DNA of 61,545 nucleotides, the filler included, from Sluysia triapertura (taxonomy: Eukaryota): the NCBI GenBank assembly GCA_046118255.1. It is 4 parts of 4 records of this genome, joined end to end, with 100 filler letters (N's around TTAATTAATTAA, not from the genome) between each part and the next. Parts side by side here need not be neighbours in the genome. Positions count along the whole stretch, not along the records: positions 1 to 15,455 come from JBJNIA010227791.1; positions 15,556 to 29,246 come from JBJNIA010024731.1; positions 29,347 to 40,923 come from JBJNIA010183202.1; positions 41,024 to 61,545 come from JBJNIA010000001.1. The stretch is one strand, 5' to 3'. Shown here one piece after another: positions 4,598-61,545 of the stretch. Positions within the stretch are counted from its first letter, which is position 1. Every line of letters starts with the position of its first letter. The notes below the pieces were generated by a model. It was not told where the DNA came from. It made no database searches and saw nothing but the letters and a program-made list of their open reading frames with translations. A program made the translations under genes and the position numbers.

Positions 4598-4755
4598 TGT
4601 TAGACTTCATAAAATGGACTGACCGGGGATCGAACCCGGGCCCTTCGCTGCGCAGTTCGAATGCTCTACAACTGAACTATCAGCCCCATCTAACGATTTC
4701 ATTTTTATTATATTCAATTTTACCAAATGGCACTTTTAGGCCTTTTACCCCAACA
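4598..4755 (-). mobile_element. tRNA-containing LTR-like repeat (family A), full-length solo copy; tRNA-like core 4615-4686
   Basis: Minus strand reads TGTTGGGG...GTGCCATTTGG...GGGCTGATAGTTCAGTTGTAGAGC...CCGGGTTCGATCCCCGGTCAGTCCATTTTATGAAGTCTAACA. It has A and B boxes, acceptor and T stems, and a T4 terminator. Confidence 0.85.
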
Positions 4756-4780
4756 CAATAATCAACTTAGAAATCATGAA

Positions 4781-5221
4781 TGTGGTGGCCAACTTCTTCA
4801 TTAAGAATTTTAAATACATCACAACACACGAAAGTTTACAATTCTACAACATTATAACATCAAAAATCATTAAATTTACATTTTAAAATTCATTTTAAAA
4901 CAATAAACTAAATGAAATTTCTCTTAACACCTTTAACCACGTTGTTATGCCCTTTAGATATTCTTTCATAAACTTTCTTAATATTTTTTTATATTCAAGA
5001 ATTTTAAAGAAATAATAGAAAGAAAGATATGTAATTTATGTAATTTTTACATTGTTATTATTTATTATTATTGTTTTATTTTATTTTTGTTATTATTATT
5101 ATTTACATTACTACATTAACACCATTTTATTATCATTATTAATATTAGTAATTGTTGCTGCCATTATTGTCTAATAGTACTCGTCAATAGTTGACGTATT
5201 TCTGTCGTTTAGTGACAGACA
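4781..5221 (-). mobile_element. Solo-LTR-like repeat (family B)
   Basis: TGTGGTGGCCAAC at one end and CTGTCGTTTAGTGACAGACA at the other. Shares CACCATTTTATTAT and both termini with the reverse complement of 46523-47172. Confidence 0.6.
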
Positions 5222-5250
5222 TTTAATTAACATTGGTATAGTCACAATGA

Positions 5251-5277
5251 TGATTTTCATTGGCCAACCAATCACAG
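5251..5277. promoter_or_regulatory. Paired CCAAT-box-like motif upstream of the ACTR5 relic
   Basis: GATTTTCATTGGCCAACCAATCACAG; a similar GATTTTCATTGGC occurs at about 501. Confidence 0.3.
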
Positions 5278-5347
5278 TAATGATTACTCTTCAATACAGT
5301 AGATTCATGTTTATTAATTTTAATTAACGTAAATTTTTAAAAACAGA

Positions 5348-6441
5348 ATGACAAAAATTATATTTCTAATTAACTGAATGATAAATCTTCACCATATTCA
5401 TCAAATAAAAGTATTTACAATACATGTTACTATGATATTCCATTTGTTATCGATAACAATTATTATCACTTTGGAGTTGAATTTTCTGTTAACAAGAACT
5501 CTTTATTACAATTTAGAAATGTTACTGGAAAGTCAAAAACTAAAAAAGATGGTATTATATTTCGAAAATACATTAAAGGTTTTAGTAGTTAATTTATATA
5601 TACATTTGATAGAAACGTGTTGGTTAATTATGAAATAAAAGGATCTGTTTTTAATTATGCTCTTGACCAAATGTTTCGAGAATTTCCGTCATACCATCCT
5701 ATGGTAATTAATAAACCTCTTTATAATCAAAATATATGCATACAACAAATGTCACAATTATTATTCAATTATTATTATTATCACAATTATACTCTAAGTC
5801 TTACTTATTATGTTGATTACCTTGTTAGTTATGCTTATGATAATTTAGTTTATTTGCAGTGATACGCAACTGACACATCAGATAATATTTCTTTTAATTA
5901 TCAATAATTTCATTCAACTTATGTACTAATTGATCTTTTAGAACCTAGAATAGAATCAGTGGGATTCTATAATCAACACGAATCACGGAGTGAAATTAAG
6001 AATTTAGAATAAACTATTGAAAATCTACAATATAAGATCAAAAGAATTTTGAAGCAATCACTAATTAAAGAGTCATTTAATGACGTTAATAGCTATGACT
6101 TAATCGACATTACTGGCGAAGAATTAGATGGTGATCAAGAATTTAAATTGAACCAGCTACAGTTAATGATACAAACAATATTGATAAGACTCGAACAAAT
6201 ACTATTACTGAATAAACTACAAAATAAAAAGATGTTAACTATTATCAATGAGCCAGAAGAAATGATTGTAGATTGTCTTTGTATATCTATCAATAATAAC
6301 AAATGCATATTATTGTTCCACTTAGTCATTGTCACAAAATGGTTGTATCATCAAATACGAAACATATGTACCGAAATTCCTCTAATCCACATATTTGTAT
6401 TTCGTTTTTGCTCAAGATCGACTATTCAAGTATTTGCTTAA
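5348..6441 (+). pseudogene. ACTR5: Decayed actin-related protein 5 (INO80 subunit) copy
   Basis: Frame 1 reads IPFVIDNN...LLQFRNVTGKSKTKK...TFDRNVLVNYE...HPMVINKPLYN...QMSQLLFNYY...SLTYYVDYLVS, matching the Arp5 N-terminus (IVIDNG, FRN, FDRNV, HP, MSELLFE, YGVD). In-frame stops at 5371, 5590, 5860, 5905 and 6010; much shorter than Arp5. Confidence 0.75.
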
Positions 6442-7764: not shown

Positions 7765-7799
7765 GATGTCCTTTCAAGAGCTGATAAACATTTAAATAC

Positions 7800-11462: not shown

Positions 11463-11463
<1 letters not shown>

Positions 11464-11500: not shown

Positions 11501-11502
<2 letters not shown>

Positions 11503-19650: not shown

Positions 19651-22600
19651 GAATCTATGAAGCATTTGTTGGTCACAAGAATTTTTATATGGGTCGTCAA
19701 CCGAAACCGTTAGAAGGGACTGATATTGTTAGTCATTGCTTCTTTTACTATAAAAGTGTTTTGTATTTAAAGATAAAAATACTTTTATACAAAAATAATT
19801 AAAACAATTCACAATTGAATATTGAATATTATTTTAATTATTTATATAGTATCGGTAAATTATTTGTAGCTGGGTATAAATTTAAAAAACAATTAACGAA
19901 ACAATATGTTTTTCTATATTAATATCTGTATTAATTAATTAAATTAAAAAATAAAAATTCAAAAGTTTATAAATTTAATTGTACATATGTCTTTTCACAA
20001 AAATTAAACTTGCTTCATCAAAATATTTTCCTCGATTTTTAATAACCTCAGCTCAGATTTTGGCGTGCGATTAGTTAATTTTTGTAAAGTATCAGGCTAG
20101 ATTTTTCTCCAAGTGATATCTAATATGTTCAAGAGCCAATTTTTGGAGATTGGTTCTTTATTCACCGTTCAACCACAACTCGATGTGGAGATTGAAGTGA
20201 CAATTCCATAAGTTTAAGGATTTCGCGTTGCTCTAATTCTTCTAAATAATCTTTGCATATTTTACTTGTGTGATTAGGATCATTAACTTGCATAAGCACA
20301 AACTTTCCTGGAAATATTCTTTCTGCGGATATAACTTGATGTCTCCTTTGCTATGATTGTCACAATTCGATTATTGCTGCCAACAAAACCACAAACCACC
20401 ACTGACCCCCCACTAAACAATTTTCTGCAAATCATTCTAGAAATTTTCGAATTTCGACTCATTTGTGCAAAGGACGTTTTGCCATTGCCTAGTGGTCCAG
20501 TTTTTTTTGGCCAAATCAATCTTTTCTTTAGATCTTTCTGCTTTAAAAGTGGTTTTCGGCAACCACTCGACCGTACAAACCAAATTTTCGTAATAGATTT
20601 TTTATTGTAGAATTTTTTCCGGTTTTATTAGACAATGACACGTTTTTAATTTGTCTGTCTCGCCTTTCTGAAGTTTTTTTGGTCTACTAGACCTTGCTTC
20701 TGTTTGACAAAAACTCTTTAACGTCTTATGCACATAACCACATGAAATCTTCATCTTTTAACAATTTTGACTTGCGAATATCTTTCCTCACTGTAAACAA
20801 GAATTATTTCACGTTCTACTTCAATAAGTTCTTTTCTCCATTAATGGTACTAAAACCTTTTTTTTACGAAAAAGGAATAAAAAATTTTTAAACTAAAATT
20901 TAACTAAACTCTTCCAATTTGATATCATAACAATATCTAAGACTGTATAATCTAATAAAATTAAAAATGTGCCATTTATTTACTCGAAGGAATTTGTTTT
21001 ATTAGGAATCAAATTTCTTGCGATAAATCGGTAATTCAAACAAACTGAATAAAAATAATGTAGTTATTAAAATAATCAAAGTAATAGTTTATATTTTAAG
21101 ATAATATATTGTATTATGAAGATAATGACAATATGTATTATTATATTTTTAATATTGTACCCTGCTACATAACTTTGTCGGTAGTATATAGAAATTACCT
21201 AAATTGCAATGAAAGTTATTTATTTTGTCTTATTAAATACTGTAATTCTTTTGTTAAAAGATATTTAACTTTAAAATTTATTGTGTAAATTTTATTTCGT
21301 ATCCGGATTAAATCAATGAAACTCGTTTATTTGAATCTCACTGATGTGAATTGTAAGGTGGAGGTTAGTTCTAACTTGTCTATGATGAAATAATGTTGAA
21401 GATTTTATGACAACTTTATGAAATTTAAATAAATTTTAACTTTGATATAATTCAATAGTGTTTCAATAATTTAACCAAATTAAAACAATTCGAATTATTA
21501 AACTAAATCAGTATTCAATCAGTACTTTATTATGTGTCCTTTAGTAGAAACTACTACCTTTTATTTTCTAACCAATTAATTTCATTCTATAATAACTGAT
21601 CTATAGTTAATTTATTCCACTATAACATTAATTTCTTTATATAATTAACTAATTTCGTTCTTCGAATTATTATGATATGTTCACTTTATATCTACATTAT
21701 TTAATTTTGTGCTGTCACATTTGTTTGGGCGTTTAACAGAAAATATCAAGATTAGATTTCAGATATATTTTTCAAAATAAAACATTTCATTCCACATACC
21801 TTCTATACCTCTTTCAGTTTGAAACGTTTCACAATAAGCGTTAATTCATAAGTTTAAAATTTCTTTAATCTTAAGCACATTTTAAAGTGTTTGAACATTC
21901 AAAAATCACTCGGACTTAAGTCAAGATGTAGTGAGCCAACATCGCAAACGTTACGAAAACTAAATTCACTTTACATTTAAAAATTATGTTGAACTAAAGT
22001 GAGATATTTCCTTACTCATGTAATACACAACTTTAAGAAATCTTTTACAATTTACACACTTTCTTAAATCATCAAACATTCTTCATCCGAACCTAAAACA
22101 AATATGCAATTTATTTCTTATAAATTAAATTATAACTGGAATTATTAATTTTGGTAGTCTAATTATTAATTATTTTAATTCAAGTTGTCTTCCATTAATG
22201 TAATAGACGAAATATCTAAATTATACGATGTAGAGGAAGAAAAATTGTTTTTGCCAAAAATTCTAGTCTATCAAGAAACATACTATCTGATTGTTAATTT
22301 TTTTACTTCAATTTCATTACAATTTCGAAATTTATAAAACAATTTGTAGATTTTTTAACAAAAAGTAATATTATCGATGTTTATTATTTTGGTGTTATCA
22401 TTACGAGAGATTAAATGAATATCTAAGAGTATTAATTTAATTCAATTTAAATTAATCATATAATAATTAAAAAGATTTTAATTCAGACCGTTTTCGTTAT
22501 GCCATCCTCCAGTGCACGTTGTGCTCAGTTACCCCGAGCTGAAGATAAACTCCCATTTTTTGTAGCATTAAGAAAATTGAGAGATTTCGTTCGTGGAGAT

Positions 22601-22763
22601 ATTCCATATTTATCTGATGAGGATGTTATTTTTATGGATTATACAGAATACAGAGTAACTCAACCTGACCCTAAAAGTTTACGAAAGGCTGAACGACGTC
22701 GTAAGCGCAAAGCGGAACAATTGTTAAATGAAGAAGCAGCTTTGAATGGGTCCAATAATCATA
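19651..22763 (+). CDS. TDG: G/T mismatch-specific thymine DNA glycosylase, two internal exons (19651-19727, 22487-22763)
   Basis: Spliced product IYEAFVGHKNFYMGRQPKPLEGTDI|TVFVMPSSSARCAQLPRAEDKLPFFVALRKLRD carries the TDG/MUG motif VMPSSSARCAQ. Splice sites TTTCAG/GTTAGT and TTCAG/GTACGT are in compatible phase. The upstream catalytic GINPG exon was not found. Confidence 0.9.
19847..21186 (-). mobile_element. Full-length degenerate Tc1-family transposon inside the TDG intron
   Basis: Degenerate ~30-bp TIRs (TAGTATCGGTAAATTATTTGTAGCTGGGTA / TACCCTGCTACATAACTTTGTCGGTAGTA) flanked by TA. Transposase remnants RSSRPKKTSERRDRQI, GLYGRV..RKPLL, SGGSVVVCG, NDPNHTSKICKDYL, QSP..IELW, RGKYFDE. Confidence 0.88.
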
Positions 22764-25700
22764 GTACGTTTGTTAAATTTAGATTTGATAGTATGTGCTC
22801 TATTATATGCCAATATATTTTTTACTCTTATTCTGCTATTTTTATTATCAAATATCAATGATTGCGATTGGAATATGTAGTTAAATAAAAATATTTATCA
22901 ACAATAATATTGGTAATAAATTGGATAGTGATTAATAAAAAATTTACGTAAACTGCAAATGTCTTTATGCAATTAATAATTTGATTTTGAAACTTTACGT
23001 AAGACACGTTAAACTCGATCGCTAAAAGTTTCTTATTTTTATTAAAATTACTGTTTATCGTGAGTATTTTAACTTGACTCACGATGTTTCGAGATAGAAG
23101 TGTTAAATATATAAGGTGGTATTTAAAAACTCAAATTATATATTAGTTGTAAAAAAATAAAGTATCTTTATAAATAATTAGTCACTCAAAAATCGATTTT
23201 ACTGAACTTTAGATTAATTTTAAATTTAATGTGATAATTATATATACTACACTAGCTATATATACTACACAATGGTACTACAATTATTGTGTTATGTCCA
23301 CTAATTGATAAATTTATTTGTCAAAAATTACGTTTAAAATTGTTGTCTCATGCTTTAAACTCTTTCTATGTTGAACTTTTGTAACCAATAAATTCTTAAT
23401 TTTCATCGTAAAGATTCCTCTCTAACCATCCTATTTCTATAATATCTATATATAGTGGATTTTATACTATAGTTAATAGCCAAATTCTGCTTATGTGCTT
23501 GTTAATTACAGTTCATAATATTTAGTGATATTATTTAGTGATAGTATTCGCTAGCTAGTATTCATTTTTAGTGAATTTTTCAAATATTTCGACGTCCTAC
23601 ATTTAATCCGTGTGGGCAGGGTTTTTTATATTTTAAATTTAATAAATTGTAATTATTTTTATGTAATTGTAATTATGTAAAAATTATCGGAAACATGAAA
23701 TTTGGAAAAATTAACGAAATATTAAACTTATTAATTACTAAACTAGGCTTAAGGCCTTTTAAACGTGACAATTTTAACAAAAAACGACCAAATTTTAAAA
23801 TCTATTATAACAGATAAAAGTTAAAAAACCTGATTAAAAACAGGTTATCATCTACTTGACATAATAAATCTTCAGAATTCATAATTATACAAAGTAATGT
23901 GCCTCGTTTGCGCACGTTGATTCATAACAATGTAAGCGTGACTCATACGAAACAGTATAATTCAAGCATCAAGTATGGCAAGACATGAATTTGGAATTAC
24001 GCAGTACTTTATAATCACTCGTTTATTTGAATACATGTCATTTTGAAAAAATTTAATGCATTTAACAAAATTAGTTTCACAGAAGCAATTTTTCTTAGCA
24101 AAAGTACGATCTGCACTTCCATATATTGAATAATACCAATTTTGAAATACAATAAACATGATACAAAATTCAATGTATTTAACCAAATTAGTGTTTACAG
24201 TTTTTAACATGTTAAAAAATCGATAATTAAAATTCTTTTACCTCTATAATAATTTGATTTGTTTGCATTAATGTAATTTTTAATCTGTTTATCAGTGGCT
24301 AGAATTATTCTGGTTTGATCATATGAAAGAATATTTGTAAATCTATTTTTTCTACTGTTGCATTCTGACGATCCTATTCTTGTAGTAAGTCTAACTTGTC
24401 CTGCAATTAATTTGGCTTTTTTTAGTCAATTCCATATATTCTGCTATTAATAGTTTATTATTTTTTGGCATCGCTCATAAACTGCTCAAAGTGTTTAATT
24501 TCAATATCTTAACAGTGACGTTTAGGTAAAACATCGGGTACAACGTCAACAATTTCTGCCATAATATATCCATTTGAATTGTGATTAACATCTTCATGTT
24601 TATAATTTTTGATTTTCAATTGATCTTGTTTTGTCTTTTCACTTTTATAAGAATATATAACAGCAGCAAATAAGACAATCATACTTATTAGAATTATTAA
24701 TATTTTATAGCTCGATTCTGTAATACTTTATAATTTAAACTGTTTCTTAGTTGATCTTCATTCATCATGTCGCAATTCTTCAGGAACTGGTGAAATCGCT
24801 TCAGTCTGTGGATAATAATTAGGTTCTTTATTTGAATTAACGAATCCATTTGAAGTTTAAGGATAATTTGATAAGGAATCTTTATGTTGCGGAGTAGTGC
24901 TGCCACACGAAGCCTTTAAATTTAGATAATGACTGCCTCGAGAAACATTAGATTTTCAGTATTAGATTGAAAAGAATCTGGTGTAAAAGCATATTTTATT
25001 AAAAATGATGGAACACTTAATCCATAATCTCGCTAAACTTTCTGAAGATTAATTAAAGCGGAGTTAATATCCGATTTTTGTAACTGACTGAATCCCATTT
25101 CAAAAAGTACAAAATGTCGAATTAACAATCGCAGTTAAGTCTTCTGAATCTATGAATTTTTTAGTAGTTGGAAAAGTGCAACTTTCAAAAAGAATATTTA
25201 TAGTTTCTAGTTTTACCATAAATGAAGAAAATAATTTACAAAATATCATTGATAAAGCTGAAAACAAAAGAATAAAAAGAAAGGTTGATAATAAGAATAA
25301 AGAGATAATAATGATAACAATAACATGATTATTTAAAATAATGTTAAAATAATGTTTTAAAATAATGGTATTGTTGATTTTAATATGAAAGTTATTATGT
25401 GGCAATCGTGGCAATTATATTATACGACAATAATCCTAATAATTATTATATATTATAATACGATTGGATCTATAATAACGATAGCTATAGTTCATGATAA
25501 TTATGTACAATGGTTATGTAGTTTGTTTAATATTCTATGTAAGTAAGTGATCTTTTTATGTGATGATATGATTTCCCTACAATTAAATATTTAAATATAG
25601 TTAAAAAATACAGAAAAAAATGCTTTGGCTTTTCTGGACAAATATAGCACCAATTTTCTGTTAATACATATTGTGACATTTTTGTAAATGTATGTTGTAC

Positions 25701-27662
25701 AACAGTAAGTTCAGAAACGTGTCCGCAGAAATAGAAACTACGATGAGATATTAAATCAAGAAGTAGTAGTAACTGTTAGTACTATTTCAACCCAATTAGA
25801 CTTATATAATTGGATATGGCAGAAGTCGCAATCATTATGTCATCGTTATGAAAGTTAACGCTATTAGATTCAAATTTATGTTGGTAAACGCGCCTTGTTG
25901 TAATTTATAGTAATCACTGATAGTCTAATCTTAAATTTAAAAGCTTCTTTGTAACATAATCTTAGTATAAGATTAATCTTAGGATCTGCCTTAAAATCGT
26001 ATTCTATTTTATTTGAAATTTATCTAGTAAAAATTCTAAAAAGTTTGATTTGCCTGTAAGTGAGAGACTTACGATTTTGCGAATCGGCTTACCAATATGA
26101 TTTATTAAACATATTTTTTAACTTCTTGTGGAGGTTCTTTCATTGTTTGAGTCGCTTTAAACTTCTTATTAATAGTATCTAATTCACAACTCTCTCTATC
26201 AATAAAGACGATGAAAAAATATTAAAAATTTTTTCATTTTATTAGATGCTTTTAGTTACTATTTTAATCGACCTTAGTCAGCCATTTTGACAGATATAAC
26301 TATACTTAAATAATTTACAAAGAAAATATTATAACGGTATTTAACTCCTTTTGTAGAACTTCATACCCAAATTTAATGAGCGAAAAAAATAATATTTTAA
26401 AATTTATTTTACTGAATTAAATGTTTAAGATGCTTTAATTATCACATAGCTTTTTTTATATTTTGTTTACTCTATCTTACGTTAGTGGTGTTTACGTCTA
26501 TTATATTATATAATTTTTGTTGTATTATAAAACCAATATTCGAGTTTTTGTTATAGTGAACCAATTTTCGTAAATTATTTAAAGCAATTAATGTTAAAGA
26601 GATAAAATTTGAATTGAAGCATTAAAAACATTTAACAAGCCAAATTCAATAGATGAACGAATTAATATATGTAGGTAAAGTTAAATTATACGCTACACGT
26701 TATGACTTTTAGTTACAAACTCACCTACTACACATTTTAAATCGTGTACTGTAGCCGCATTTCGCTAAAATTTATTTTACCGTAAGTTAGTAATAAGAAA
26801 AACCACTGCAAATTTATAGCAATAACATATACTTATTTAAATAACTTTAAAATAAATTTAATTTCAAAATAATGTTCTAAAGATTGTTTTGATTACACAA
26901 CGTGCAGTAGATGAGTCTGTGAGTAGAAGATAAATTGCACTTGGAAACTAGAAATATAAATAAATTAATATTTATTAATTAAATTGTAAATGTAAAATTA
27001 TATAAATAAAAGGAAATCATTATTAATTTGAACTTTAATATTGATAATATTTATTTTACAAATCGACTTAATTGTCAATCAAATATTATTTATTAAATCT
27101 GAATTAAAGTAATAAATTAAAATAAACACTTAATTATTAAAGTCTAAACATTACAATTAAGAATTAGTTAATTAGTCGGTGGGAATTCTTATTCGTAGAA
27201 ACTAATAAGTATTCTAATCGTCTAATATTGTATCTTTTTCTTTATTAATAATTTCTTACTGATTCTTAACTTGTTTATTTATGGAATTTTTTGGCGATAA
27301 TCTAAATAATATTTATAATAATTTATTTTTAAATGGCCAGTAAGTAATTTTCTTTCTTTTATTTTGTTTTTCAGAATTTCAGTACAAATAATTAACCAAT
27401 CAGATTAATTATTTTATTTATTTTTAGATTTTTGGGTTCGTAATTTCCTATAATAATAATTATTATTATTATTAATTTTATTTTTCTTATTATTATTCTT
27501 TTTCGGATAATAACGCTTATTTATAGTGCCATCTTTTTGTTTTATGAGATTAAAAGGTCTTATAAATCTATTTTAAATTTGGAAAAGCTAACATTGTTTG
27601 ATTCATTATAATAGTAATAATAATTATTATTTTATTAATATTATTCTTATATTATTTACGTT

Positions 27663-28048
27663 TTTTAGAATTCAGAAAATTGACTGACCGGGATTCGAAC
27701 CCTGGACCTCTCTCTGCGCAGTTCGATGATTAAAAACATGTATTAATATAATAGTTTTAGTCTCTTTTTTAGAGAAGGAAGGTCTTCTTGTGCGGGGCAA
27801 TTTTCTTTCTTCTTTCAGGAACCTTGCAGGACATGGTGGCGGTATGCGTTGTTCGAGGACTCTACAGTTAGTCGTATCAGGGTCTTGATTTCGGAATCCA
27901 TTAACCCCAAGGCATTTTAGTTGTTCCTGCAGTTTGTCCTGGAGATCAGCATACTTCGCAGTATCCACTGAGCTATGAGCCCCATCTAACAATTTTAGAT
28001 TATTATAGTCAATTATACTAAATGGCATTTTGGGCCTGTATCCCAAAA
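27663..28048 (-). mobile_element. tRNA-containing LTR-like repeat (family A) interrupted by a 233-bp insertion
   Basis: The 5' half (28048-27962) ends at CTCAGTGGATA; the 3' half resumes at CATCGAACTGCGCAG (27728-27663). Confidence 0.85.
27729..27961 (-). mobile_element. Probable 3' end of an RLE-type (R2/R4/NeSL group) non-LTR retrotransposon
   Basis: GC-richer insert encoding AKYADLQDKLQEQLKCLGV, reminiscent of the K-x2-KY-x2-L...G-x-LG restriction-like endonuclease tail, followed by an AT-rich 3' end. Confidence 0.4.
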
Positions 28049-28536
28049 CATTATTGTTATTAATATTATAACACTAATATTATTAATAGTAGTAGTATTA
28101 TTATTACTTAAATAAATTTTGACACACTGCTAGTTTAAATCTACCTAATAGGCATGCCATATTACAACTTGACAATTATATTTGAAGCCATTTATGTTAA
28201 TCCGAGGATGTATTATTAAATGTGAAATATGTATGTTATTAGATGGAGTATTTAAATTATGTAACTAAAAGCATTTGTATATTATTTGTAGTGCAGATTT
28301 ATTAAAACGTGTAAGCAACTGCATATTTCGTAAAATAAACTCACTTCCTTGCATATTTACGACTGCTTAGTTTCAACCGAACTTTCAGCTTCGTATAACA
28401 ATTTTAATTATGGAAATTTTTAATCAATCCAATACATCCAATAGAATAAGTTTTTCATTTATGAAGAAGTAAAAATAGGGGAATTAAGTCTTAATTTTCG
28501 AAACAAAAACAAAATATATAATTAAATACATGAAAC

Positions 28537-28860
28537 TGTTGGGATACAAGCCTAAAGTGCCATTTAGTATAACTGACTATAATAATCTAAAAATTTTTAA
28601 ACGGGGCTAATATCTCAGTGGGTAAAGCAGCGAGAGGTTCCAGGCTCGATCCCCTATCAATCCATTTTATGAAGTCCAGCATTTGGTGAGCTCACACATC
28701 GAATACCTTTCTGGTGTTGAATTAAATGATTTATAAGATGTTTCAGATTAAAGATAATTGAATTGGGAGATATATAATGGGATACATGCCTACAGTGCCA
28801 TTTAGTATAATTGACTGCAATAATCTAAAATTGTTGCACGGGCTGATACCTCAGTGGATA
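28537..28860 (+). mobile_element. Two-LTR TRIM-like element with tRNA-derived LTRs: LTR1 28537-28681, PBS-like site from 28684, PPT-like site ~28760-28770, truncated LTR2 28775-28860
   Basis: TGTTGGGATACAAGCC...GAAGTCCAGCA, then TT TGGTGAGCTCAC, a 93-bp interior ending GGGAGATATA, then a direct repeat TAATGGGATACATGCC...CTCAGTGGATA. Confidence 0.75.
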
Positions 28861-29246
28861 TCCTTAGTCTTAATTTCAGTCCACAGAACATACGTCTCCA
28901 TCTTCCAGTAACATGTCGTGGTGTTTAAACTCATTTATCGTTCATGCTGGTTTAATACTAGAAACAAAATCATACATAAATCTGTAATAAAAATGTTGGG
29001 ATTAGTGAAGGATAAGGGTTGATATAAGGGTTAAAACATAGGATAACAGAATAAGTTGAACGTTATTAAAGAACTAAGACAAGATATTATGGTGAACTGT
29101 AATGGTGGGATAAGCATATAAAATAATTAAATCAAGATAAAATAATGAAACATTACGGGGTTTTATCTATTAAAATATTAAAGTACATTTGTTAATTAAT
29201 TTAATTATAATTTGTTTAATTTCATAAGTCAATAAAAATGTTTGCT

Positions 29247-33241: not shown

Positions 33242-33388
33242 TGTTAGACTTCATAAAATGGACTGACCGGGGATCGAACCCGGGACCTCTGGCTGCGCAG
33301 TTCGATGCTCTACCATTAAGCTATCAGCCCCGTCTAACAATTTTATTTTATTATAGTCAATTTTACCAAATGGAACTTTAAGCGTTTA
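33242..33388 (-). mobile_element. tRNA-containing LTR-like repeat (family A), 5' end lost; tRNA-like core 33259-33330
   Basis: Perfect TGTTAGAC...GTCTAACA inverted repeat around the core GGGCTGATAGCTTAATGGTAGAGC...GGTTCGATCCCCGGTCAGTCCA. Confidence 0.88.
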
Positions 33389-33499
33389 TTATTATTATTA
33401 TTGGATTATTATTATTAGATTTTCGAGTATGTTATGATTTAGATAAGGAGAACGTGTAAGATAAAAAAGAAAAAAGTATAGTGAGTGATTCTACAATAA

Positions 33500-34836: not shown

Positions 34837-35098
34837 ACCGAACTTCCTCAAATATAGGCCCACCTAAAAAAGCACAAGAATGTGAAATTTTGGAAAATTT
34901 AAAAATTCCAAATATAAGGTTGCCATGTCATTAAGAATTTTTCATTAAGAATTCATTAAGAATTTTTGATGATAGATTAACACAAAATATAAATAAATAA
35001 TCCTATAATTTCTTATTTTTTCAAAATACAAAAAATGTACTCGAATATAAGCCTATTAATTAATTTCATCCATGAGCTTATTTTCGAGTAGGCTTATG
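34837..35098. mobile_element. pogo-type MITE remnant
   Basis: Repeated (C)TCGAATATAAG(C)C-like motifs at the left and inverted GCTTATTTTCGAG at the right. Confidence 0.45.
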
Positions 35099-41602: not shown

Positions 41603-43796
41603 GGTTTGAAAGCAAGAGGTAATGTCGAAGACTGGTTAGGTAAAGTAGAAGAAGCAATGTTTATGAATATACGTCGATTGATTCGTCAAGCAGCTTATGA
41701 ATATGAAACAACGAATCACGAAGAATGGTTAAAAGCAAATGCCAATCAAGTTGTACTAACAGTTGAACAGATAGTTTGGTGTCAAAACATTACAAAGATA
41801 CTTGAAGATCCAAATGTTGGTAAACGATTAGGAGAAATGGAATTGTTTGAAAAGAAAAACTTTCAGGTGAATTTATTTATTTTCATGTAATATTCTAAAT
41901 AAAGGATCTTAATGAATTGGCAACTTTAGTTAGAGGACAATTGCCAAAATTATTTCGTGCTACATTGTGTGCACTAATAACGATCAATGTACACGCACGT
42001 GACATGGTAACAGGAATGGTTTATAAGAAAGTGTCAGATATTAATGATTTCGAGTGGCAGAAGCAGTTGCGTTATTATTGGAATGAAAGGTACGAAAATT
42101 ATGTTGTCAATATGTCAAATTCGTCGTATACTTATGGTTACGAATATCTTGGTTGTTCACCAAGACTTGTCATTACACCATTAACTGATCGTTGCTATTT
42201 ATGTTTAATGGGTGCACTTCAGTTAGACTTAGGTGGTGCTCCAGCAGGTCCAGCAGGTACTGGTAAAACAGAAACTACAAAAGATTTAGCAAAATCTCTT
42301 GCTAAACAGTGTGTTGTGTTTAATTGTTCTGATGGTTTAGATTACAAAATGATGGGTAGATTTTTCTCTGGGTTGGCTCAATCAGGTGCTTGGTGCTGCT
42401 TCGATGAATTTAATCGTATTGATATCGAAGTATTGTCAGTTATTGCTCAACAACTCATCACAATTAGAAATGCCAAAGCTTCAAAAGTAATTCAATATTT
42501 ATTAATGAAATATTTAATCTGCGATTATTTTATTTAAATCAAGTCTAAATCCAAAATATTATCAATTTTTTAAAATAATTTTCTTTGATACTCTTTTAGT
42601 ATTTTGATCTTATTGGTCAATCTTCCTATAGTTAAAGTTTTTCACATTTAACTCTGTGTATAATAATAATTTTCTTATTTATACACGAATTCAATAATAA
42701 ATTATTCTAGTGAATGATGCATTTTAAATTCTGTAAAATAAAATGAATTTTATTGGTTTATGTTCTATACTTAGCGTGTATTTCTACATATTTTTTAAAA
42801 GTTTATCATTAGTTCCGCCTAAACTCAAAATAAATTTCACCAGCCATGGATAACTTGACTTGACCTTGAAAGTGGAGTATGATTGAATTTTGATTTGGAA
42901 GTGAAGAAACAATTTTAAGAAAAATAATACATACAACAGATGATAATTTTTATTGAATCTTTACATTCTGTAAATATTGATAAGTAGCATAAAATAACAT
43001 AGTTATAATAAACTGTTTATCATTATAGATTACACGGTTCATGTTCGAGGGTCGTGAAATAAAATTAGTGCCTACCTGTGCTGCTTTTATTACCATGAAT
43101 CCTGGTTATGCTGGCCGTACAGAATTGCCTGATAATTTGAAAGCTTTATTCAGACCTATATCTATGATGGTTCCTGATTATAGTAAGTTTCATAAGATTT
43201 CAAAAAATATCAAATAAAGTACAATAATTGCATGAATAATAATACACAGCTGCATTATCAATTTTGTCATGGTAGATAATTTCTAAAAAAAATGATTGCT
43301 ATTACAATAATTGTAGCAACGTAATAAATCGCATTGTGTTGGTAAATTTATAAATACAAATAATGAATGCATTTGGAATAACCACTTACACAGACACATA
43401 CAAACACCAATGAAGTAATACATTAACATCATGAGTTACTTATGACTCACCTGGTTCATATATTGAGAAGTAAATTAAGTAATTTTTAAAATATCAAAAT
43501 TTTAATGTTTATTGAAAATTTTAGAACTAATTGCCGAAGTGATTCTTTATTCGGAAGGCTTTGAATCATCAAAGAATTTGGCTCAAAAAATGACTCAAAT
43601 GTACAAATTATGTAGTGAACAATTGTCACAACAAGATCATTATGATTTTGGTATGCGAGCATTGAAATCAGTATTAGTTATGGCCGGTCAATTGAAACGG
43701 GAAAATCCTGATAAGCCCGAAGATGTGGTACTTATTAGAGCTTTAAGAGATAGTAATCTTCCTAAATTTCTCAAACAGGATGCAGGCTTGTTTACG
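41603..43796 (+). CDS. DNAH6: Axonemal dynein heavy chain 6-like, linker and AAA1 exons (41603-41866, 41905-42486, 43029-43182, 43525-43796)
   Basis: P-loop [45 protein letters not shown]6-type [18 protein letters not shown] and [13 protein letters not shown]. All GT-AG phases are consistent, including a 38-nt intron. Confidence 0.93.
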
Positions 43797-50959: not shown

Positions 50960-51172
50960 TTAATGTATTTCAATCTTTTCCCGAGTATCCAATATTGCAT
51001 TTTTTAACTCAGAGATATAGTTATACTGTTTTCCTTGACTGTGCTTCTTAAAGGATAATTGAGACCATAAATTTTCTATTTGATTGAGGCCAGGGAATCT
51101 TGCTGGCCACTCTAAAGATCTATTTGATAAAGATCTAGTTTGATAATTATTTGACACACAAGAGAAAATCAA
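50960..51172 (-). mobile_element. Tc1-family transposase C-terminal fragment
   Basis: LEWPARFPGLNQIENLWSQL corresponds to WPARSPDLNPIENLW. Confidence 0.85.
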
Positions 51173-51329
51173 GAGACTAAATAAAATTTTAACATTAACG
51201 TTGGAACGTTTTAACTTGGTATTACGATNNNNNNNNNNNNNNNNNNNNNNNNNNNNNNNNNNNNNNNNNNNNNNNNNNNNNNNNNNNNNNNNNNNNNNNN
51301 NNNNNNNNNNNNNNNNNNNNNNNNNNNNA

Positions 51330-51760
51330 TTCTATATAGATTATTATTATGTCTCAATGAAATATTCATCTTCATTTCCAATTTTCGTATCATTTCCAAA
51401 AGATATTCAGGACTTCTGTAATGTAAGCATTTGTAAATTATTGTCACGATTTTGAATTATACTCTTTGCTTTTATTTGAAACCAATGTAATTCCTTAAGA
51501 TAAGGTGTTACATGCAATCTTTTTCCAAGGTGGAAAATTAGTCTTGCTGCTTTATTAATTATTAATTGTAATTTTTTTTACTTTTCTATACGAAATTGAG
51601 CGCAACATACAATTGTTAAAATCAGTGTTATTAGTTATCAATGAATGAACACTTAGTTTAGCTATTTCTTTATTAATAAATTTTCGAATATTTGATGTGT
51701 TCTTTAATTGATATTTATACCTTTTAACAATACAAATAACTATTTAATATAATTATCCAA
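51330..51760 (-). mobile_element. L2/CR1-group LINE reverse transcriptase C-terminal fragment
   Basis: LKNTSNIRKFINKEIAKLSVHSLI...INKAARLIFHLGKRLHVTPYLKELHW...FKIVTIIYKCLHYRSPEYL. Confidence 0.85.
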
Positions 51761-52570
51761 TTATTTACATTATAAAGTTTATATCATAAATAAAAGAAAA
51801 CTGAATATTTCTTAGTATCCATGTCCTTATAACAGTTAAATTATAGTAACGTCACCAGTTACAAATCAAAAATTTAATCTATATAACTTTTATTTTCACC
51901 TTGCTCTAAGTGAAACTAATTTCAGTATTAATAACATAGCCTATTCTCAATAAAATATACTATAAAATTCATTTTCGAAGAATAATTATCACTGTCATTA
52001 TTATTATATTTGATTGTAATTTGAAAAACAAATTCTTCATAAATAATAATTCAAAAATAATTGAAAAATATTTTTAATGATACTATAGACATAAATGAAG
52101 TATATTTATTAAAAATTGGTCGTTAAAGTCGTAAATCGAACAAAAACAATAACTACATGAACAAGATTGTTATCACAAGAAGTATTAACTGATTATTAAA
52201 AGCAACTTTAGCAGAAGAAAATAGCTTATTAAAATATTGTTATTTACATTAATAAGACAATGTCTTTCATAAACATTGATTTGTAAAAAATATTAAATAT
52301 ATATATTTTATTTACTTAATAAATATATTACTTACTCGAAGTCTATAGATAATGAGTTTTAATTGGTTTTTTCCGAGAAAAGCATTTAATTAACAAAAAT
52401 ATAAAGTAAACACATGAATATATTTTAAATTTTAAATTTAAATTTCTTTTTAATAAAATTGTTTACTTAATTATTCTTTCTTTATTTATCTCTTCAAGTA
52501 ATTCTTCAGAGTATAAAACTATAATTTTCATAGCATCATAAATTAATTTAATAATTAAAATAAATTATAC

Positions 52571-53227
52571 CTTAAATTCTTTTTCTATTTCTGCCAATTT
52601 CATCATTTCTTGTCTTAATTCAAATGTTGTCATGATAGGATCTGGACTGGATAAAGCCATGAATGCTGGACTAGCCAAAGCTCGATAAGCATTTAATCTC
52701 GATCTTGATCTTTTCAATGAATCATAATCTTGTTTCACTTGACAATCTTTACATTGACACGAAATTGGATGCGGTTTTTCAATAGTATGTTGTCTCGATA
52801 GAAACATTTGAATCATCTCGTGATTATTATAATGAGCTGCTAAGATAAGTGGACTTATGTCGGGACTAAATTGACTTTTTTCTGTTATTCTGAAAAATGC
52901 ATTATTAAAATCCATGCGTCGAATTTGATCTTCATGAGCCATAAAATTCGGATGTTCAATAATAATACGTTCGATTTTAATATGGCCCTTACTAATGGCA
53001 TGCAATAAGGCTTCTTCTATACATTCGAAATCTAATTTATCTAACAATAATTCTATGGATTCTGCATTTTCAGAATCTACTGCTAAATGTAAAGCATTTC
53101 GACCCATATAATCAACACAATTTACATTCAGCTTATCAGCAGGTGTATCTCCATCTAAGAACATTCTCAAAATACCAGCATCACCCAGCGCGGCTGCATT
53201 GAGGTACACTCGTTCTTCATCTGTGAG
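52571..53227 (-). CDS. TRPC-family cation channel, N-terminal exon (ankyrin repeats and TRP_2 domain), 219 codons
   Basis: LTDEERVYLNAA, NVNCVDYMGRNALHLAV, FSPDISPLILAAHYNN, HPISCQCKDC, DSLKRSRSRLNAYRALASP, EKEFK. TAG acceptor and GTATAA donor, phase 0 at both ends. Confidence 0.93.
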
Positions 53228-54396: not shown

Positions 54397-54896
54397 GATT
54401 CAGTTGACATCTTGGAAAATCTTATAGGTAATATAGTCGGGAATGTTTTGGTTTCAGCGGGTTATGTCGCTTATTTAGGACCTTTTACTGGTGAATATCG
54501 TTTGAATTTACAGCAACATTGGGTTAAAACGATAAAAGAAAACCACGTACCTGTGGCAGACAAATTACAACCTACTTTAGTAGATACATTCGGTGATCCG
54601 GTAAAAATACGAAATTGGCAAATAGATGGTTTACCTCGTGATCAACTTTCAGTAGAAAATGCTGTTATAGTACAATTTTCAAGACGATGGCCACTTTTCA
54701 TTGATCCACAAGGACAAGCTAATCGATGGATAAAAAATCTTCAAATGGAAAATAATTTGGAGGTTATTAAATTATCTAATAAAGACTTTTTAAGAAGTCT
54801 TGAAAATTCAATTCGATTTGGAAAACCTTGTTTATTAGAAAATATTGGAGAAGAATTAGATCCAGCATTAGAACCGATTCTATTACGTCAAGTAAA

Positions 54897-54971
<75 letters not shown>

Positions 54972-56810
54972 TAAATAATGATAAAATGTCACAAAAGTAA
55001 TAAAAAATTATTTATTTATCATTAATTTTGGATTATATCATATTAAAGTTTTACACTGTTCATATCTGCTAAAACTGGTAATTTTTACTAGGTAGTGTCA
55101 TTTTCATCTTGAAGAAAATTTGTAATGTTGCTTTAGGAAAAGAACATGAGATTTCAAATGTTATAGTTCCTTTATTCTTATTTATATTACCATTCGGAAA
55201 GATGTAAAGTTGGATATTTACATAAAGATAAAATCCCATTTCGTGACTGACTAAAATCCAATCTGTGCCGGATTTTGGCATTTTGGGCCCAATGAGTCCA
55301 CGCCTAGAGGGCTCTGCATTCGAAGTGCAACCAATCAGTAAAATTACATTCTTATTAATAAAATATGGTAAATATATAAAATGCGAGGCCCTTTTAAAAT
55401 ATGTGTAATATGAGCCATAATAGATGCATAAATTTATTCATTATTATTTTGAGATATGGTTTACATTTGTCGACTCACAGTAAATGTTACTTAATTTCTA
55501 GGGAGATATTTATTGATTTTACATGTATTATGTGTTTATTGTAGTAAATATTTATCCGCACATTGTGACTTTTTCTTAAAATGTTATTTTAAACATACTT
55601 ATTCATTTAATGCAAATTTCTTCTGTTAATATTTTTATTTTTGCTACGGTTCATATTCGTGATCGGTGTAGAACAAGAACTAGATCCGGACCTGAATACA
55701 AACATACATAATTAGCAATAACTTTTCCAAAGATATTTAAAACAATGTATGTGGTAATTATATATGAAATTCATTAATTTATTTAAATTTTCTTAAACTT
55801 TTTATTGAATAGATGAATTATTTGTTGATATTAGATTTATGCCGATTCATTATTTTTAAAGATTTTCTATAATCGTAAAATATTCCATTACTAAAGAGTA
55901 CTTCAATAATTTTTACCGAAAATAAAATTGTCAATTAATAGTTTAGGTCAGAAGTGCCACAAAACTATAAAAGCAAAATGTATTTTTGTATAAAAATTTT
56001 GTATCACTATATTTATAAATAAATACCTACTGGCATCTTAATTTACTAACAGATTATATATTAAACAACACACTTATTGCGACATTCAAACAAACCTAAA
56101 CGCTTAAATCATGAATTAAGTATAACTTTATGTAAAATCATCACTTTTGAATTACGAGTATTGATGGATTAATAATCTATTATTTTCCTATTATTTTGAA
56201 AATTTAATTGACAATATTTTTCTTTAGGTGTTCAAAGATCAAGGATCTAATGTTATTAAACTTGGTGATTCAATTATTCCTTATCATGATGATTTCAAGT
56301 TTTATATTACAACAAAGTTACCGAATCCACATTATACACCTGAAGTGAGTACTAAAGTTACTTTAGTTAACTTTACATTATCACCTGGTGGTCTAGAAGA
56401 TCAATTGCTTGGTATGGTTGTAGCTGAAGAAAGACCAGATTTAGAAGATGCAAAAAATCAGTTAATTGTTAGTAATGCAAAAATGAAGCAAGAATTAAAA
56501 GAAATCGAAGATAAAATTTTATATCGACTTAGTGTTGCAGAAGGATCACCAGTTGATGATATTGATTTAATACAAACATTAGAAGCATCGAAATTAAAAT
56601 CGAATGAAATCGAAGCCAAAGTTATTGTGGCTGAACAAACAGAAAAAGATATTGATGAAACTCGTAGTCGTTATATACCAGTAGCTGTAAGAACACAGAT
56701 CTTATTTTTCTGTGTAGCTGATCTAGCAAAAATTGATCCAATGTATCAATATTCATTGGAATGGTTTCTTAATATTTTCATTCACGGTATTAACAATGCA
56801 GAAAAATCCA
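54397..56810 (+). CDS. DNAH1: Axonemal dynein heavy chain 1-like, end of stalk and AAA5 exons (54397-54891, 56228-56810)
   Basis: RRWPLFIDPQGQAN, RFGKPCLLEN, KLGDSIIPYHDDF, EERPDLEDAKNQLIVSN, ILYRLS..EGSPVDD and VAVRTQILFFCV are DNAH1-type. Splice phases are consistent. Confidence 0.9.
54898..54970. repeat. (TTA)n microsatellite at the start of an intron
   Basis: Begins 6 nt after the donor at 54892. Confidence 0.95.
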
Positions 56811-58019
56811 GTATGTTATTTAATAAACACATTATCTTATTTCAACTTGTATTTTTAGGTTTAAATTTTTGTAAAATTAACCATAAATGTATTAAAATAT
56901 ATTATATGCAGTAAAAGATTGTATACATTTTGAAAGCGATAAATTGGATGTTTGTGTAATTTATTACTATTTATATTATTAATGCACAAAATCCTCAAAC
57001 CTAATTTTTGGAATATGATATATTAACTTTATTGGATATTGTTAATAAAGAACAATAAATTGTAACTATTAATACATTATCTTTCAATAATTAAAATAAC
57101 TTTTGCACCGTTTTAAATGTCACCTGAAAATATTTTCTGTAAATTAAATATTTTACAAATAATATAATCTATAATATAGAAAGTACGTGTATATGGGAAT
57201 TCTAAGAATTGGTATAGCAATAAAAACAATTGCCTAGAGAATGTGATTGTGAGCTTTTGAGATAATTAAAATATTTTAATTACAAAAACCCGAAGATTTA
57301 TGACAATATTTTAAGTGCTTCTTGTAACTCAATACCATAAATAAACGACGAAATAAAGATTTTTATTCATTTCTTAAGCATATGCTGTAGAGGTCGGTTT
57401 GTTTGAGTTTATTGATAGATTTAATTGAATTAAAGTCGTGGAAAGCTTCGAGGGCTTGATTTTGTGTAAAAAATGACGATGTTGGTGTAATTCGATCTCG
57501 TGAACATTATATTTATCTATAGGACAAGCAAGGTACAAAAGCTTAAGAAACTCAAAATTAGGTTGAACTAAATTATTGACTTTTAAAATGTTTTCAAGTT
57601 CGATTATGTATGGGCTAATTATGTCTTCATTATGTAAGNNNNNNNNNNNNNNNNNNNNNNNNNNNNNNNNNNNNNNNNNNNNNNNNNNNNNNNNNNNNNN
57701 NNNNNNNNNNNNNNNNNNNNNNNNNNNNNNNNNNNNNNTGATCAATATATTATAACCTATACTAAAATACTATATAGCTATATTTGAAGATATTTTGTTT
57801 GGCTTTGTTTCATTTGTTTACTTTTAATATTATCATATGTTTCGTTTAAGTATTCTTCTTTAGCGAAGGAAGATTAATAAATTGTTTCTTGGTCATTATA
57901 TCTTGTTTTCTAGCCGATGGATTAAACTAGTATGGAGCATCAGAGTTGTGAAGCACATTAGTACTACAGAATCAGGATTTTCTGACATTTTTTAAGTTCG
58001 GGATTCTGATATAAATATA

Positions 58020-58345: not shown

Positions 58346-58389
58346 TAATAATTGATTATTAATAATCTATAACTTATTAATAATTGATC

Positions 58390-58880
58390 CAATATGACAA
58401 TCGCAAACGTTCAGCAAGTGGTTGCTCAAGGATGAATCATCAACACACACTCCGAAGTACAATATTAATCAAAAAGTTGATGATGTGTTTGGTAGCCTAA
58501 CGCAAGTATAATCCATTACGATTTCATGAAACATGGCTCATCGATCGCAGCAGAAATAGACTACAACTAACTGGACGAAATGATTTAAAAACTTAAAGAA
58601 TAGTCAACGTTAGACCATACACTGCAGAAATGACTGGGGCAAAACTAATGGAAATGTAGTTGGAACTTTATCATTATCTTCCATTCTCACCAGAATTAGA
58701 GTCCAGTAACTATCACTTCTTCCTCTAATGGACAACTGTTTAATTTCAACAATGCTGTAAAACCGACCTTCCAAGAATTCATTGAGTCTCCTCTGCCAGG
58801 ATTTTATACAGTGAGCCTGAACAACCTGTCGCTTAAATGGCAAAGTGAATAAACAATGTGGATGCATGCTTTGATGTATA
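58390..58880 (+). mobile_element. Degenerate mariner (DD34D-type) transposase
   Basis: NVRPYTAEMTGAKL...YLPFSPELESSNYHFF corresponds to DNARPHT...HPPYSPDLAPSDYHLF, followed by FQEFIES..PGFY...KWQ. Confidence 0.85.
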
Positions 58881-59884
58881 AAACTATTCCTTACATTTGT
58901 AAGTTATCAATCAACTTTGCCTTTTTAATACAAATTTTATTAATGTAGCAATGAAAACATTACATAAAAGAAAATAAAGTCTAGACTATAAATTCAATAG
59001 CTCAGACATTTAATAACTAATTAACATTTTAAATGCTTTGATTCTAAGTAATATATACATTTATAAATGAATATATATAATAAAATATAACGATTTACAA
59101 ACCTCATTTTGTGATTTAAAACAGTGAAAAATTTTTAACTTAAATTCATATACAATTTACAGTTCGAAAAAGGTAACTTATTACTTAACATAAATTAACT
59201 ACACAATGCACACAATTTATAAACACATACACAACTTATCTTCTTGGCACACTTATAAAACAATATTCACCAATTAAAATATAGAACTATTCTTATTTAT
59301 ATAGCACCTGAACAAGCACACAAACAAACTTAGATTTTATTGGTAAATAATAGTTACAAATTTCAGTTCACTACTTTTAAAGAATTTTCATTTATTTTTT
59401 GATACCAAGCAACGAAGAAAAGAATTGGATATTACTTTAATAATATTTAAAATAATTCTTTCATTTTGATATTAATTATAAGAGGAAATCAATAATTTTA
59501 ATTTTTATGGATAAAATAAAGTGAGTTTTTTGGATTCAATTTTACATTCTGAAGGAGAATTCAATCTGAAGTAATTAATGAATTAATAGCATAAATCGGA
59601 GTTAACTTTCATTTCGTATTATGCTATTATTCATGAGTTACAATAGTTTTATCATCAATTTTGTGTTTATTTTAAGGAAGTTAATCAAATAAATGATTTT
59701 GAAATTGTGTACTAGAGCAATTAATATTTAAAAATATAATTACATGCAATTAATAGTGCTATAACTACTATTTTTATACATGTAAAATAAAATAAAATTT
59801 GTTTTAATATGTTAAAAAATATTATTGTTTATGATTATTTTTAAATCAACCAATCATATTTTTGTTTTATAAAATTTGTTATAA

Positions 59885-60313
59885 ATGATTCGTTTTATTT
59901 TAATACAAAATAGAGCTGGTAAAACACGTTTAGCTAAATGGTATATGCCTTTTGATGATGAAGAAAAACAAAAATTAATTGAAGAAGTTCATGCTTTGGT
60001 TACTGTGCGAGATGCTAAGCATACTAATTTTGTGGAATTTCGTACATTCAAGATAGTTTATCGTCGTTATGCTGGTTTATATTTTTGTATTTGTGTTGAT
60101 GTAATGGACAACAGTTTAATGTATTTGGAAGCAATTCATAATTTTGTAGAAGTTTTAAACGAACTATTTCACAATGTTTGTGAATTGGATTTAGTCTTCA
60201 ATTTTTATAAAGTATATTCAGTAGTTGATGAAATGTTCTTAGCAGGTGAAATTCGTGAAACTAGTCAAACTAAAGTACTTAAGCAAATGACTCAGCTCAA
60301 CTCTTTGGATTAA
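59885..60313 (+). CDS. AP2S1: AP-2 complex subunit sigma, complete and intronless (142 aa)
   Basis: [20 protein letters not shown]...[11 protein letters not shown]...[17 protein letters not shown]...[19 protein letters not shown] box at about 59850. Confidence 0.98.
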
Positions 60314-60779
60314 TGTGATATTGTGTTTATTTCAATTTAAGCTGTTTATTTTTTTTAATTAGAATTTAGATATATTTAAATTACGAAAACTAATTGTGTA
60401 ATATATTTTTGAAAGCTTAGGTTTTTTTTATTGGAATTATACTGAAGGGTAATATTTTTAAATGACTTAATTTTTAATTTATGTATTGTACAACCGCATA
60501 TTAAGTTACAATGCTTACATTTATTAGATGTATTATTGATGATACATGCGTTGCGAAATTTCGTAAATAAATAAAACATTTATTTACAGCAATTGTGTGC
60601 TTGATTTTATAATTAACAAGTCGCATTCATGTATATATTTTATTTTTTTTCTTACGAAATGCTTAATATTTCACTTTTCATGATTGAAATTAAAATTTGT
60701 TAAATTTTTGGATATTTTTAATTGTGGGATGCATAAAAGTACTAACATGTAATACATTATGTTTTAGAAAAGGAATCTT

Positions 60780-61432
60780 TTGCATCCTCCTGCTTTACGC
60801 TGTTTCTTTATAACAGCGTAAATTTAAAGAATTAATTTTTTCGAAAAACACTATCACAAATATTTAACTAGACAATGTCATTTTGTTTAAACGAAATTAT
60901 TTATCTTTGAAGCTAATATTGTACGAACAATTAAGAATAATTTATAAAAATGGTTGCTTCATTTTAGTACTGCATCGAACTCTTTTAATGATAATAAATT
61001 AATACACAAAAAATTAGAAAATTTTAAACTCATAAAGGAATTGAAATAATTAGTGAAGATGATCCTGATGTGGAATGCACTATTAAGTGTAAAAGAATCA
61101 TTGAAGATGCTTTACACCCTTATCAAGATATAAAGAGAATTGAAGAAAAACTTTACTAACTACTCTTCATACTTATTTTGAGCTGAAAAAGAAACATTGT
61201 AAATGTTTTAAAATTTATGTAAACATATAACTATATATTTATTTTTCTGTTTTGAATAAATAAATGAATAAAACATACATAACAATAATAGATATAATGC
61301 TTTCATGTCGAGTTTATGACTTTAAATATTTCTTAACTGTAAAAATTATGCAAATTTTAAATATCATGTGGTGTTTTGGATTACGTTGCGAGTTGCTGGA
61401 ACGGATTAACGACGTAAATGAAGGACTTCTAT
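60780..61432 (+). mobile_element. Internally deleted pogo/Tigger-like element
   Basis: GIEIISEDDPDVECTIKCKRIIEDALHPYQDI resembles the Tigger transposase tail. Right end GGAACGGATTAACGACGTAAATGAAGGACTTCTA; left end TCCTCCTGCTTTACG. Confidence 0.6.
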
Positions 61433-61446
61433 ATTTTAGATGAATA

Positions 61447-61545
61447 TGTTAGACTTCGTAAAATGGAGTGACCGGGGATCGAACCCGGGACCATCGTCTG
61501 CGCAGTCGATATGCTCTACCACTGAGCTATCAGCCCCGTCTAACA
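61447..61545 (-). mobile_element. tRNA-containing LTR-like repeat (family A), cut by the window end; tRNA-like core 61464-61536
   Basis: TGTTAGAC...GTCTAACA flanks GGGCTGATAGCTCAGTGGTAGAGC...GGTTCGATCCCCGGTCACTCCA. Confidence 0.88.

Follow-up and report, generated by a model that had tools for sequence, protein, structure and literature searches.

A probable Helenus-type miniature LTR retrotransposon with tRNA-like LTRs in the AT-rich genome of Sluysia triapertura

Six LTR stretches and one whole element

The window analyzed here is a stretch of 61,545 nucleotides from the Sluysia triapertura assembly GCA_046118255.1, which consists of four pieces joined by spacers, has a GC content of 20-29%, and carries exons of dynein heavy chain, TRPC channel and clathrin adaptor small chain genes together with six tRNA look-alikes. 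These look-alikes are the long terminal repeats (LTRs, ~158 bp) of a miniature LTR retrotransposon (terminal-repeat retrotransposon in miniature, TRIM), and the six LTRs correspond to five insertions. Very probably, the element is a non-autonomous TRIM of the Helenus/TRIMp3 type, ~410 bp long, in an AT-rich flatworm genome. An initial annotation had placed six tRNA-like stretches here, in all four segments, and both position checks and BLASTN confirmed them: a query of 4591-4760 retrieved the five other stretches at E-values of 7e-48 to 5e-5 (next match 0.028), and pairwise identity among the six copies is 72-90%.

Three of the six copies (numbered c1 to c6 along the window) are complete, namely c1 (4598-4755, minus strand), c2 (27663-28048, minus, interrupted by a later insert) and c3 (28537-28681, plus). 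Copy c1 is an unaccompanied LTR of 158 bp, with a tRNA-like unit at 4615-4686 (minus) that has an A box, a B box, and acceptor and T stems (Rfam RF00005, 46.3 bits, also called by ARAGORN), and with a run of four Ts (T4) at 4611-4614. Copy c3, the 5′ LTR of a whole TRIM copy, has a deletion of ~12 bp across the anticodon arm and its T4 at 28665-28668, and c4 (28775-28860, plus), the 3′ LTR, ends after the A box, where it is cut by another repeat. The 5′ end of c5 (33242-33388, minus; tRNA-like unit 33259-33330, 47.8 bits) is replaced by an (ATT)n run, and c6 (61447-61545, minus; tRNA-like unit 61464-61536, 43.7 bits, also called by ARAGORN) is the 3′ part of an LTR that ends at the window end. 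The TG...CA bounds initially proposed are exact at both ends in two of the three complete copies and inexact in the third. The sequence shared upstream of the tRNA start measures 67-69 bp (~65 bp in the initial annotation) and runs to a sharp TG edge, while the tRNA-like unit is followed by 17 bp and then by unrelated flank or a primer-binding site (PBS) in five of five copies, without the poly(A) or simple-repeat tail that the annotation had likewise found missing.

Copies c3 and c4, at first taken for two single copies, are instead the two LTRs of one element: they lie on the same strand, 93 bp apart, in an LTR-PBS-purine tract-LTR layout seen in one of the five insertions. The whole element is thus non-coding and ~410 bp long, a 158-bp LTR plus a 93-bp internal part plus a second LTR. 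Within the internal region (28682-28774, plus), the PBS (28684-28693, plus) starts two bases after the CA of the LTR, and its 10 nt are complementary to the 3′ end of tRNA-Trp(CCA), pairing by eye with the 3′ end and CCA of Schmidtea mediterranea TRP-CCA_tRNA_1 with a single U:G wobble. The PBS was compared with tRNAs of S. mediterranea (Table S1, PMC7962491), and in the rows drawn on there the matching tRNA ending occurs in five, one labelled Trp and four with Trp-like bodies under other labels. At 28692, most other copies have the Watson-Crick base (3,164 of 4,810 depth, 59 contigs). Honeybee tRNA-Trp (Kojima Fig. S2, PMC10886601) differs from planarian tRNA-Trp by one mismatch within the PBS positions, so that the PBS fits the planarian form. 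The spacer opens with TGG, a triplet found within 0-3 nt at 3.0% of window positions and after the LTR in none of the four other copies having a 3′ flank. A short, imperfect polypurine tract (28765-28774, plus; 8 of 10 purines) stands directly before the 3′ LTR, whose start is canonical in other copies (2,143 of 2,350 depth at 28776, and 2,251 of 2,350 at 28777). The element's tRNA-like 3′ end was also considered as a self-primer and rejected, since by eye it is not complementary to the PBS.

The abundance of the family was gauged from the contigs of one run (X1), which contains 83% of the words of 21000-29200 and yielded 6,682 records when aligned to 27624-29003 at 80% likeness; summed contig depth in these data is not copy number, and unique flank has a depth of 19.6. 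Bin depths in the LTR reach 193,332 and a single position 317,906 (peak ~16,000x background), and the two bins of the internal region stand at 33,405 and 21,658 (~1,100-1,700x), with 34-91 contigs at variant sites. Because depth peaks inside the spacer (33,333 at 28714 vs. 4,810 at 28692), the repetition of the internal part is not spill from the LTR. As a rough inference, LTRs would number on the order of 10^4 and internal parts on the order of 10^3. A different record spans 28705-28816 without gaps and so joins the internal part to the 3′ LTR (70 + 42 letters, with 25 other letters). The 5′ edge of the LTR, where ragged ends would have refuted the initial annotation, is sharp: 169 records at 28537 (c3; agreement of the loose ends 0.41) and 151 at 28046 (c2) continue into unrelated AT-rich sequence.

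Several further repeats adjoin these copies. The copies fall into two subfamilies, c1, c5 and c6 (~89% alike) and c2, c3 and c4 (83-86% alike), with c1 sharing 67-76% identity with the latter over the 5′ half. A six-copy profile (nhmmer) additionally picked out a weak seventh LTR fragment at 28363-28408 (minus, E 0.009), without a contig pile-up at 80% likeness, which is perhaps an old copy. The insert in c2 (27729-27961, 233 bp, strand unassigned) is a separate repeat with a depth of 1,864-4,882 against 19.6; other copies skip it, and their joints between 27728 and 27962 identify it as secondary. It is GC-richer, stands at ~100-250x background and contains a minus-strand open frame; three LTR bases were apparently lost at its insertion site. 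It had no Pfam match above cut-off and no Rfam match, which leaves its assignment to a Penelope or piggyBac fragment unsupported. Another abundant repeat (28866-28911, depth 16,863 vs. ~20) starts where c4 ends. Around c5, an inverted AT-rich repeat pair (32022-32429 and 34350-34837, blocks of 85% and 93%) may be a DNA transposon's long terminal inverted repeats or else a different repeat present twice, and just before c1 lies an 80-bp direct repeat (3514-3593 and 4217-4295, 95% identical, ~700 bp apart).

The tRNA-like unit

Three of the six copies score above the RF00005 gathering score of 29 (43.7-47.8 bits), and ARAGORN calls two, one as Ser(cga) and the other as undetermined. In each of the three scored copies the acceptor and T stems can form (acceptor pairs 7/7, 7/7 and, in one copy, 6/7), and each of the five copies that extend far enough has a T4 after the unit, as initially described. 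The anticodon stem forms no standard arm, and its sequence differs in every copy. A decoding tRNA is therefore unlikely, given this arm and ARAGORN calls that are inconsistent within the family. The palindrome CTGCGCAG, around which the annotation had described the anticodon stem as broken, is present in four of the five copies spanning its site, but its supposed conservation does not extend to other copies, where a CpG-type change breaks it (loose-end consensus, X1 contigs).

By eye, the D and anticodon arms follow S. mediterranea tRNA-Cys(GCA), c6 agreeing at 20 of 20 bases counted from position 7, and adding two bases to the Cys loop gives the palindrome. The latter is probably descended from a Cys anticodon loop, to judge from this match, and need not be selected. 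For the T arm, the outer acceptor pairs and the discriminator, the match is tRNA-Ala(TGC) of the same species. The inner acceptor pairs agree with neither the Ala nor the Cys tRNAs of planarians compared and resemble tRNA-Glu (also by eye). The label "alanine-like" hence suits the T arm and outer acceptor stem and not the D and anticodon arms; in its sequence the unit looks like a Cys/Ala mosaic, of mixed or blurred origin. Pairwise among five copies (c4, being partial, left out), identity is 73% (326/444) in the upstream part and 72% (180/249) in the A-box region, 32% (18/56) and 57% (46/80) in the two anticodon-stem strands, values depressed by a single deletion and by the insert site. The palindrome reaches 80%, the T arm 82%, and the 3′ strand of the acceptor together with the tail 86%. 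In c5 and c6, a perfect inverted 8-mer, TGTTAGAC / GTCTAACA, brackets the unit (33242-33339 and 61447-61545), its arms lying at the LTR 3′ end and just before the tRNA start; the window end coincides with the inner arm in c6.

A G3:U70 pair is an alanine identity element, and retroviral palindromes serve as dimer signals. One might speculate that the TRIM's unit acts not just as a promoter but also, once transcribed, as a tRNA mimic: thousands of LTRs, with T4 right after a unit having a fully paired acceptor stem, G3:U70 and A73, would then produce an abundant RNA of 75 nt, open to processing and alanine charging yet unable to decode, with the loop palindrome as a kissing-loop dimer signal for packaging and a leaky terminator as the switch. 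That all of these would hold together strikes us as rather improbable. If it did, a leaky terminator would toggle a ~10^4-copy family between an abundant tRNA decoy and a transposition intermediate.

Proposed mechanism and rival explanations

On the model of Helenus and Cassandra, RNA polymerase III (Pol III) would use the A and B boxes of the 5′ LTR and start at the 5′ end of the tRNA-like unit. Some transcripts would fail to end at the first T4 and continue through the internal part and second LTR as far as the second T4; the resulting RNA, ~330 nt long, would have the tRNA-like unit as its terminal redundancy. This RNA would then be packaged by a Gypsy-type element of the host, which would supply reverse transcriptase and integrase, prime with tRNA-Trp and integrate the product, and LTR-LTR recombination and later decay would leave mostly lone or broken LTRs. 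In human cells, Pol III termination is leaky at canonical T runs, and T4 is an efficient terminator in vitro (PMC3141230), while Cassandra transcripts can read through intervening LTRs (PMC7215508). The PBSs of animal Helenus elements resemble those of Gypsy (PMC10886601), and more than 90% of planarian LTR elements are reported to be Gypsy.

Alternatively, the same TRIM could carry its tRNA piece as a passenger without a promoter role and owe its transcription to RNA polymerase II acting from the upstream LTR portion. We regard this as unlikely, and it would change the mechanism only, the TRIM call itself being unaffected. A T4 right after the unit would halt most Pol III transcripts within the 5′ LTR, the A-box region is no more alike among copies than the upstream part (see above), Pol III transcription of Helenus is unvalidated according to Kojima 2024 (PMC10886601, in the passages drawn on), and in cestodes the LTR of ta-TRIM gives rise to transcripts, spliced read-through RNAs among them (PMC4558846). 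Against this reading, the A and B boxes sit at tRNA spacing and the anticodon stem between them is the most variable part (in part through one deletion), as in Helenus, and the recurrence of one layout across unrelated Helenus families suggests function.

Other readings dispense with an LTR element altogether. The tRNA-like head, the high copy number and the lack of a convincing target-site duplication (TSD) would suit a tRNA-derived or composite short interspersed element (SINE), copied by a long interspersed element (LINE), whose upstream part is captured flank. Such an origin is largely refuted by the 67-69 bp of common upstream sequence with a TG edge that is sharp in 169 + 151 records, by the missing tail and by a T4 that leaves no room for a body straight after the head, and by a repeated internal region with a PBS joining two copies. 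Amplified real tRNA genes, or tRNA pseudogenes spread by segmental duplication, have the smallest chance of all: although three of the six copies pass the Rfam cut-off and keep acceptor and T stems and T4, their anticodon stem is unpaired and different in every copy, their flanks are unrelated past a fixed edge, and LTR depth peaks at ~16,000x background. Taken together, the whole LTR-PBS-purine tract-LTR copy, the repeated and bridged internal part and the sharp LTR 5′ ends exclude a plain SINE or tRNA array, and the core of the initial reading, an LTR with a tRNA-derived Pol III unit, is strengthened by the whole copy. A non-autonomous DNA transposon (MITE, Ginger-like or Helentron-like) with a captured tRNA gene, the LTR ends and inner inverted 8-mer being its terminal repeats, is very improbable too. 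Such transposons can start with TGT, and the inverted 8-mer around the unit in c5 and c6 and the absence of a clean TSD are in line with one, but the outer ends share only four inverted bases, and neither a tRNA-Trp PBS nor direct repeats flanking a conserved spacer would serve any purpose in such an element.

Several observations nonetheless weigh against the preferred reading, a Helenus-type TRIM transcribed by Pol III. No clean TSD was found: the flanks of c2 (CGTT/CATT, mismatched at a CpG) match at three of four positions (9% by chance) and those of c1 (CCTT/CAAT) at two of four (37%), and for a younger copy such as c1 (89.5% to c5), two mismatches exceed expectation. The initial interpretation of the single copies as solo LTRs is thus not borne out by the two that could be tested; at a guess, c1 itself may have arisen through recombination between two elements or through misassembly. 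The purine tract is short, with 2.9% of window 12-mers equally rich in purines and G. Identity between c3 and c4 (73/88, 83%) does not exceed that of either with c2 (76/88 and 73/87), which, judged on sequence, fits an old burst and does not single out c3 and c4 as a pair. That the 192-nt read-through path contains no T4 is not significant, since chance gives the same in 8-21% of cases: T4 is likewise missing from 1,920 of 23,388 windows, from 880 of 6,403 windows matched for T, and from 21% of shuffles. No autonomous partner occurs in the window, where no reverse transcriptase was seen among 15 open reading frames of at least 120 aa (9 of the 15 Pfam-scanned). All genome-wide evidence comes from the single run X1, perhaps the source of the assembly and hence no independent support, and in it no bridge from the 5′ LTR to the internal part was present among the 8 of 6,923 pieces listed, nor any row for the LTR 3′ edge among the 6 of 563 loose-end rows listed.

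Host affinity and known systems

The host affinity of the window was assessed from its TRPC exon, whose best named relatives are from a cestode and trematodes (81-82% identity), followed by a snail (79%). In a quick IQ-TREE tree of the window protein with 64 of 120 listed matches, the window protein joins all four named flatworms in a clade of 10 rows (SH-aLRT 99), branching outside the 7-row group that contains these four. This tree makes the host a flatworm; combined with the low GC and the PBS, it would further point to a free-living, planarian-like one. An orthonectid host is not favored, as the TRPC protein clusters with the named flatworms, in a tree whose rows include no orthonectid. 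A search with AP2S1 at E 1e-80 gave one match and was uninformative.

The TRPC exon (52565-53227, minus) lies between dynein heavy chain exons at 41899-42537 and 54397-56914 (plus), on the opposite strand, and the TRPC gene may be nested within the dynein heavy chain gene, with N gaps between the exons. An AP-2 sigma-type adaptor gene without introns (59885-60313, plus; 142 aa, PF01217) is also present, as is a short frame beside an N gap (50960-51331, minus) whose end, by eye, we take to resemble the C-terminal motif of Tc1/mariner transposases.

If the interpretation as a Helenus-type TRIM is correct, it would extend Helenus/TRIMp3 to Platyhelminthes, where the family has probably arisen independently and stands at very high copy number. 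LTRs of this kind pass tRNA finders and so inflate tRNA gene counts; in S. mediterranea, ~4,100 raw tRNA predictions are reported against 1,372 retained loci, and a link to such elements can be conjectured. With so abundant a family in a planarian-like animal, Pol III transcription of Helenus could also become testable, including the passage of the first T4 and use of the second.

Among tRNA-derived SINEs (SINE2), a tRNA-like unit with A and B boxes is likewise dispersed at high copy number, but here the unit is internal, lacks a body and tail, and sits within an LTR pair with a PBS. Cassandra and Ajax (PMC7215508, PMC10886601) similarly have a Pol III promoter derived from a small RNA in the LTR of a non-autonomous TRIM, though theirs is derived from 5S rRNA and they occur in plants and nemerteans; according to Kojima 2024 (PMC10886601), Cassandra is alone among such elements in having its Pol III transcription validated. 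The ta-TRIM of taeniid cestodes (PMC4558846) is also a flatworm TRIM with TG...CA LTRs, a PBS, a polypurine tract and many solo LTRs, and differs in its 198-bp LTRs, ~590-bp internal part, tRNA-Leu PBS and 4-bp TSD. The main text of that paper does not contain "polymerase III", and a tRNA-like LTR is not described in the passages drawn on. In the literature searched (Repbase and Dfam being outside its scope), ta-TRIM was the sole flatworm TRIM found, with no flatworm element of the Helenus kind, and exact-pattern scans returned no stretch in metagenome contigs or viral contigs.

The closest resemblance is to Helenus (TRIMp3; Kojima 2024, PMC10886601), which is likewise a non-coding TRIM with a TG...CA LTR whose 3′ half holds a tRNA-like unit with A and B boxes and a broken anticodon arm, followed by a T run, with a PBS right after the 5′ LTR and a purine tract before the 3′ LTR (here short and imperfect), and whose LTRs also outnumber internal parts. 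The sizes found here fall within the range of animal Helenus (LTR 104-323 bp, internal part 43-621 bp), total Helenus length being ~310-1260 bp (PMC10886601). The fungal Helenus consensus LTRs compared have the same order of TG, spacer, tRNA-like unit, T run and CA, the internal part of a fish Helenus ends with a motif similar to the purine tract, and the PBS is of the class seen in wasp Helenus-2_SyJa and in Gypsy-32_NVi (tRNA-Trp; PMC10886601). Animal Helenus elements have a 4-bp TSD, against three and two matching positions of four in the two copies here, and LTR abundance is perhaps of order 10^4 against at most 5,575 in the Helenus Table S3, a comparison across differing counting methods. 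Exact motif searches of the Helenus supplement gave no match for two motifs from the tRNA part and only unrelated ones for the palindrome and PBS; by exact motifs, rather than alignment to the consensus set, no listed family looks a close relative. The Helenus host lists (Table 1 and Table S1 of PMC10886601) name six animal phyla, fungi and one plant, and no Platyhelminthes. The Helenus features in hand are paired LTRs, a tRNA-like LTR, TG...CA ends, a PBS and a non-decoding unit, with none of those tested failing, which suggests that the element is probably a new Helenus-type family, of a kind already described in 2024 but in a host phylum that looks new.

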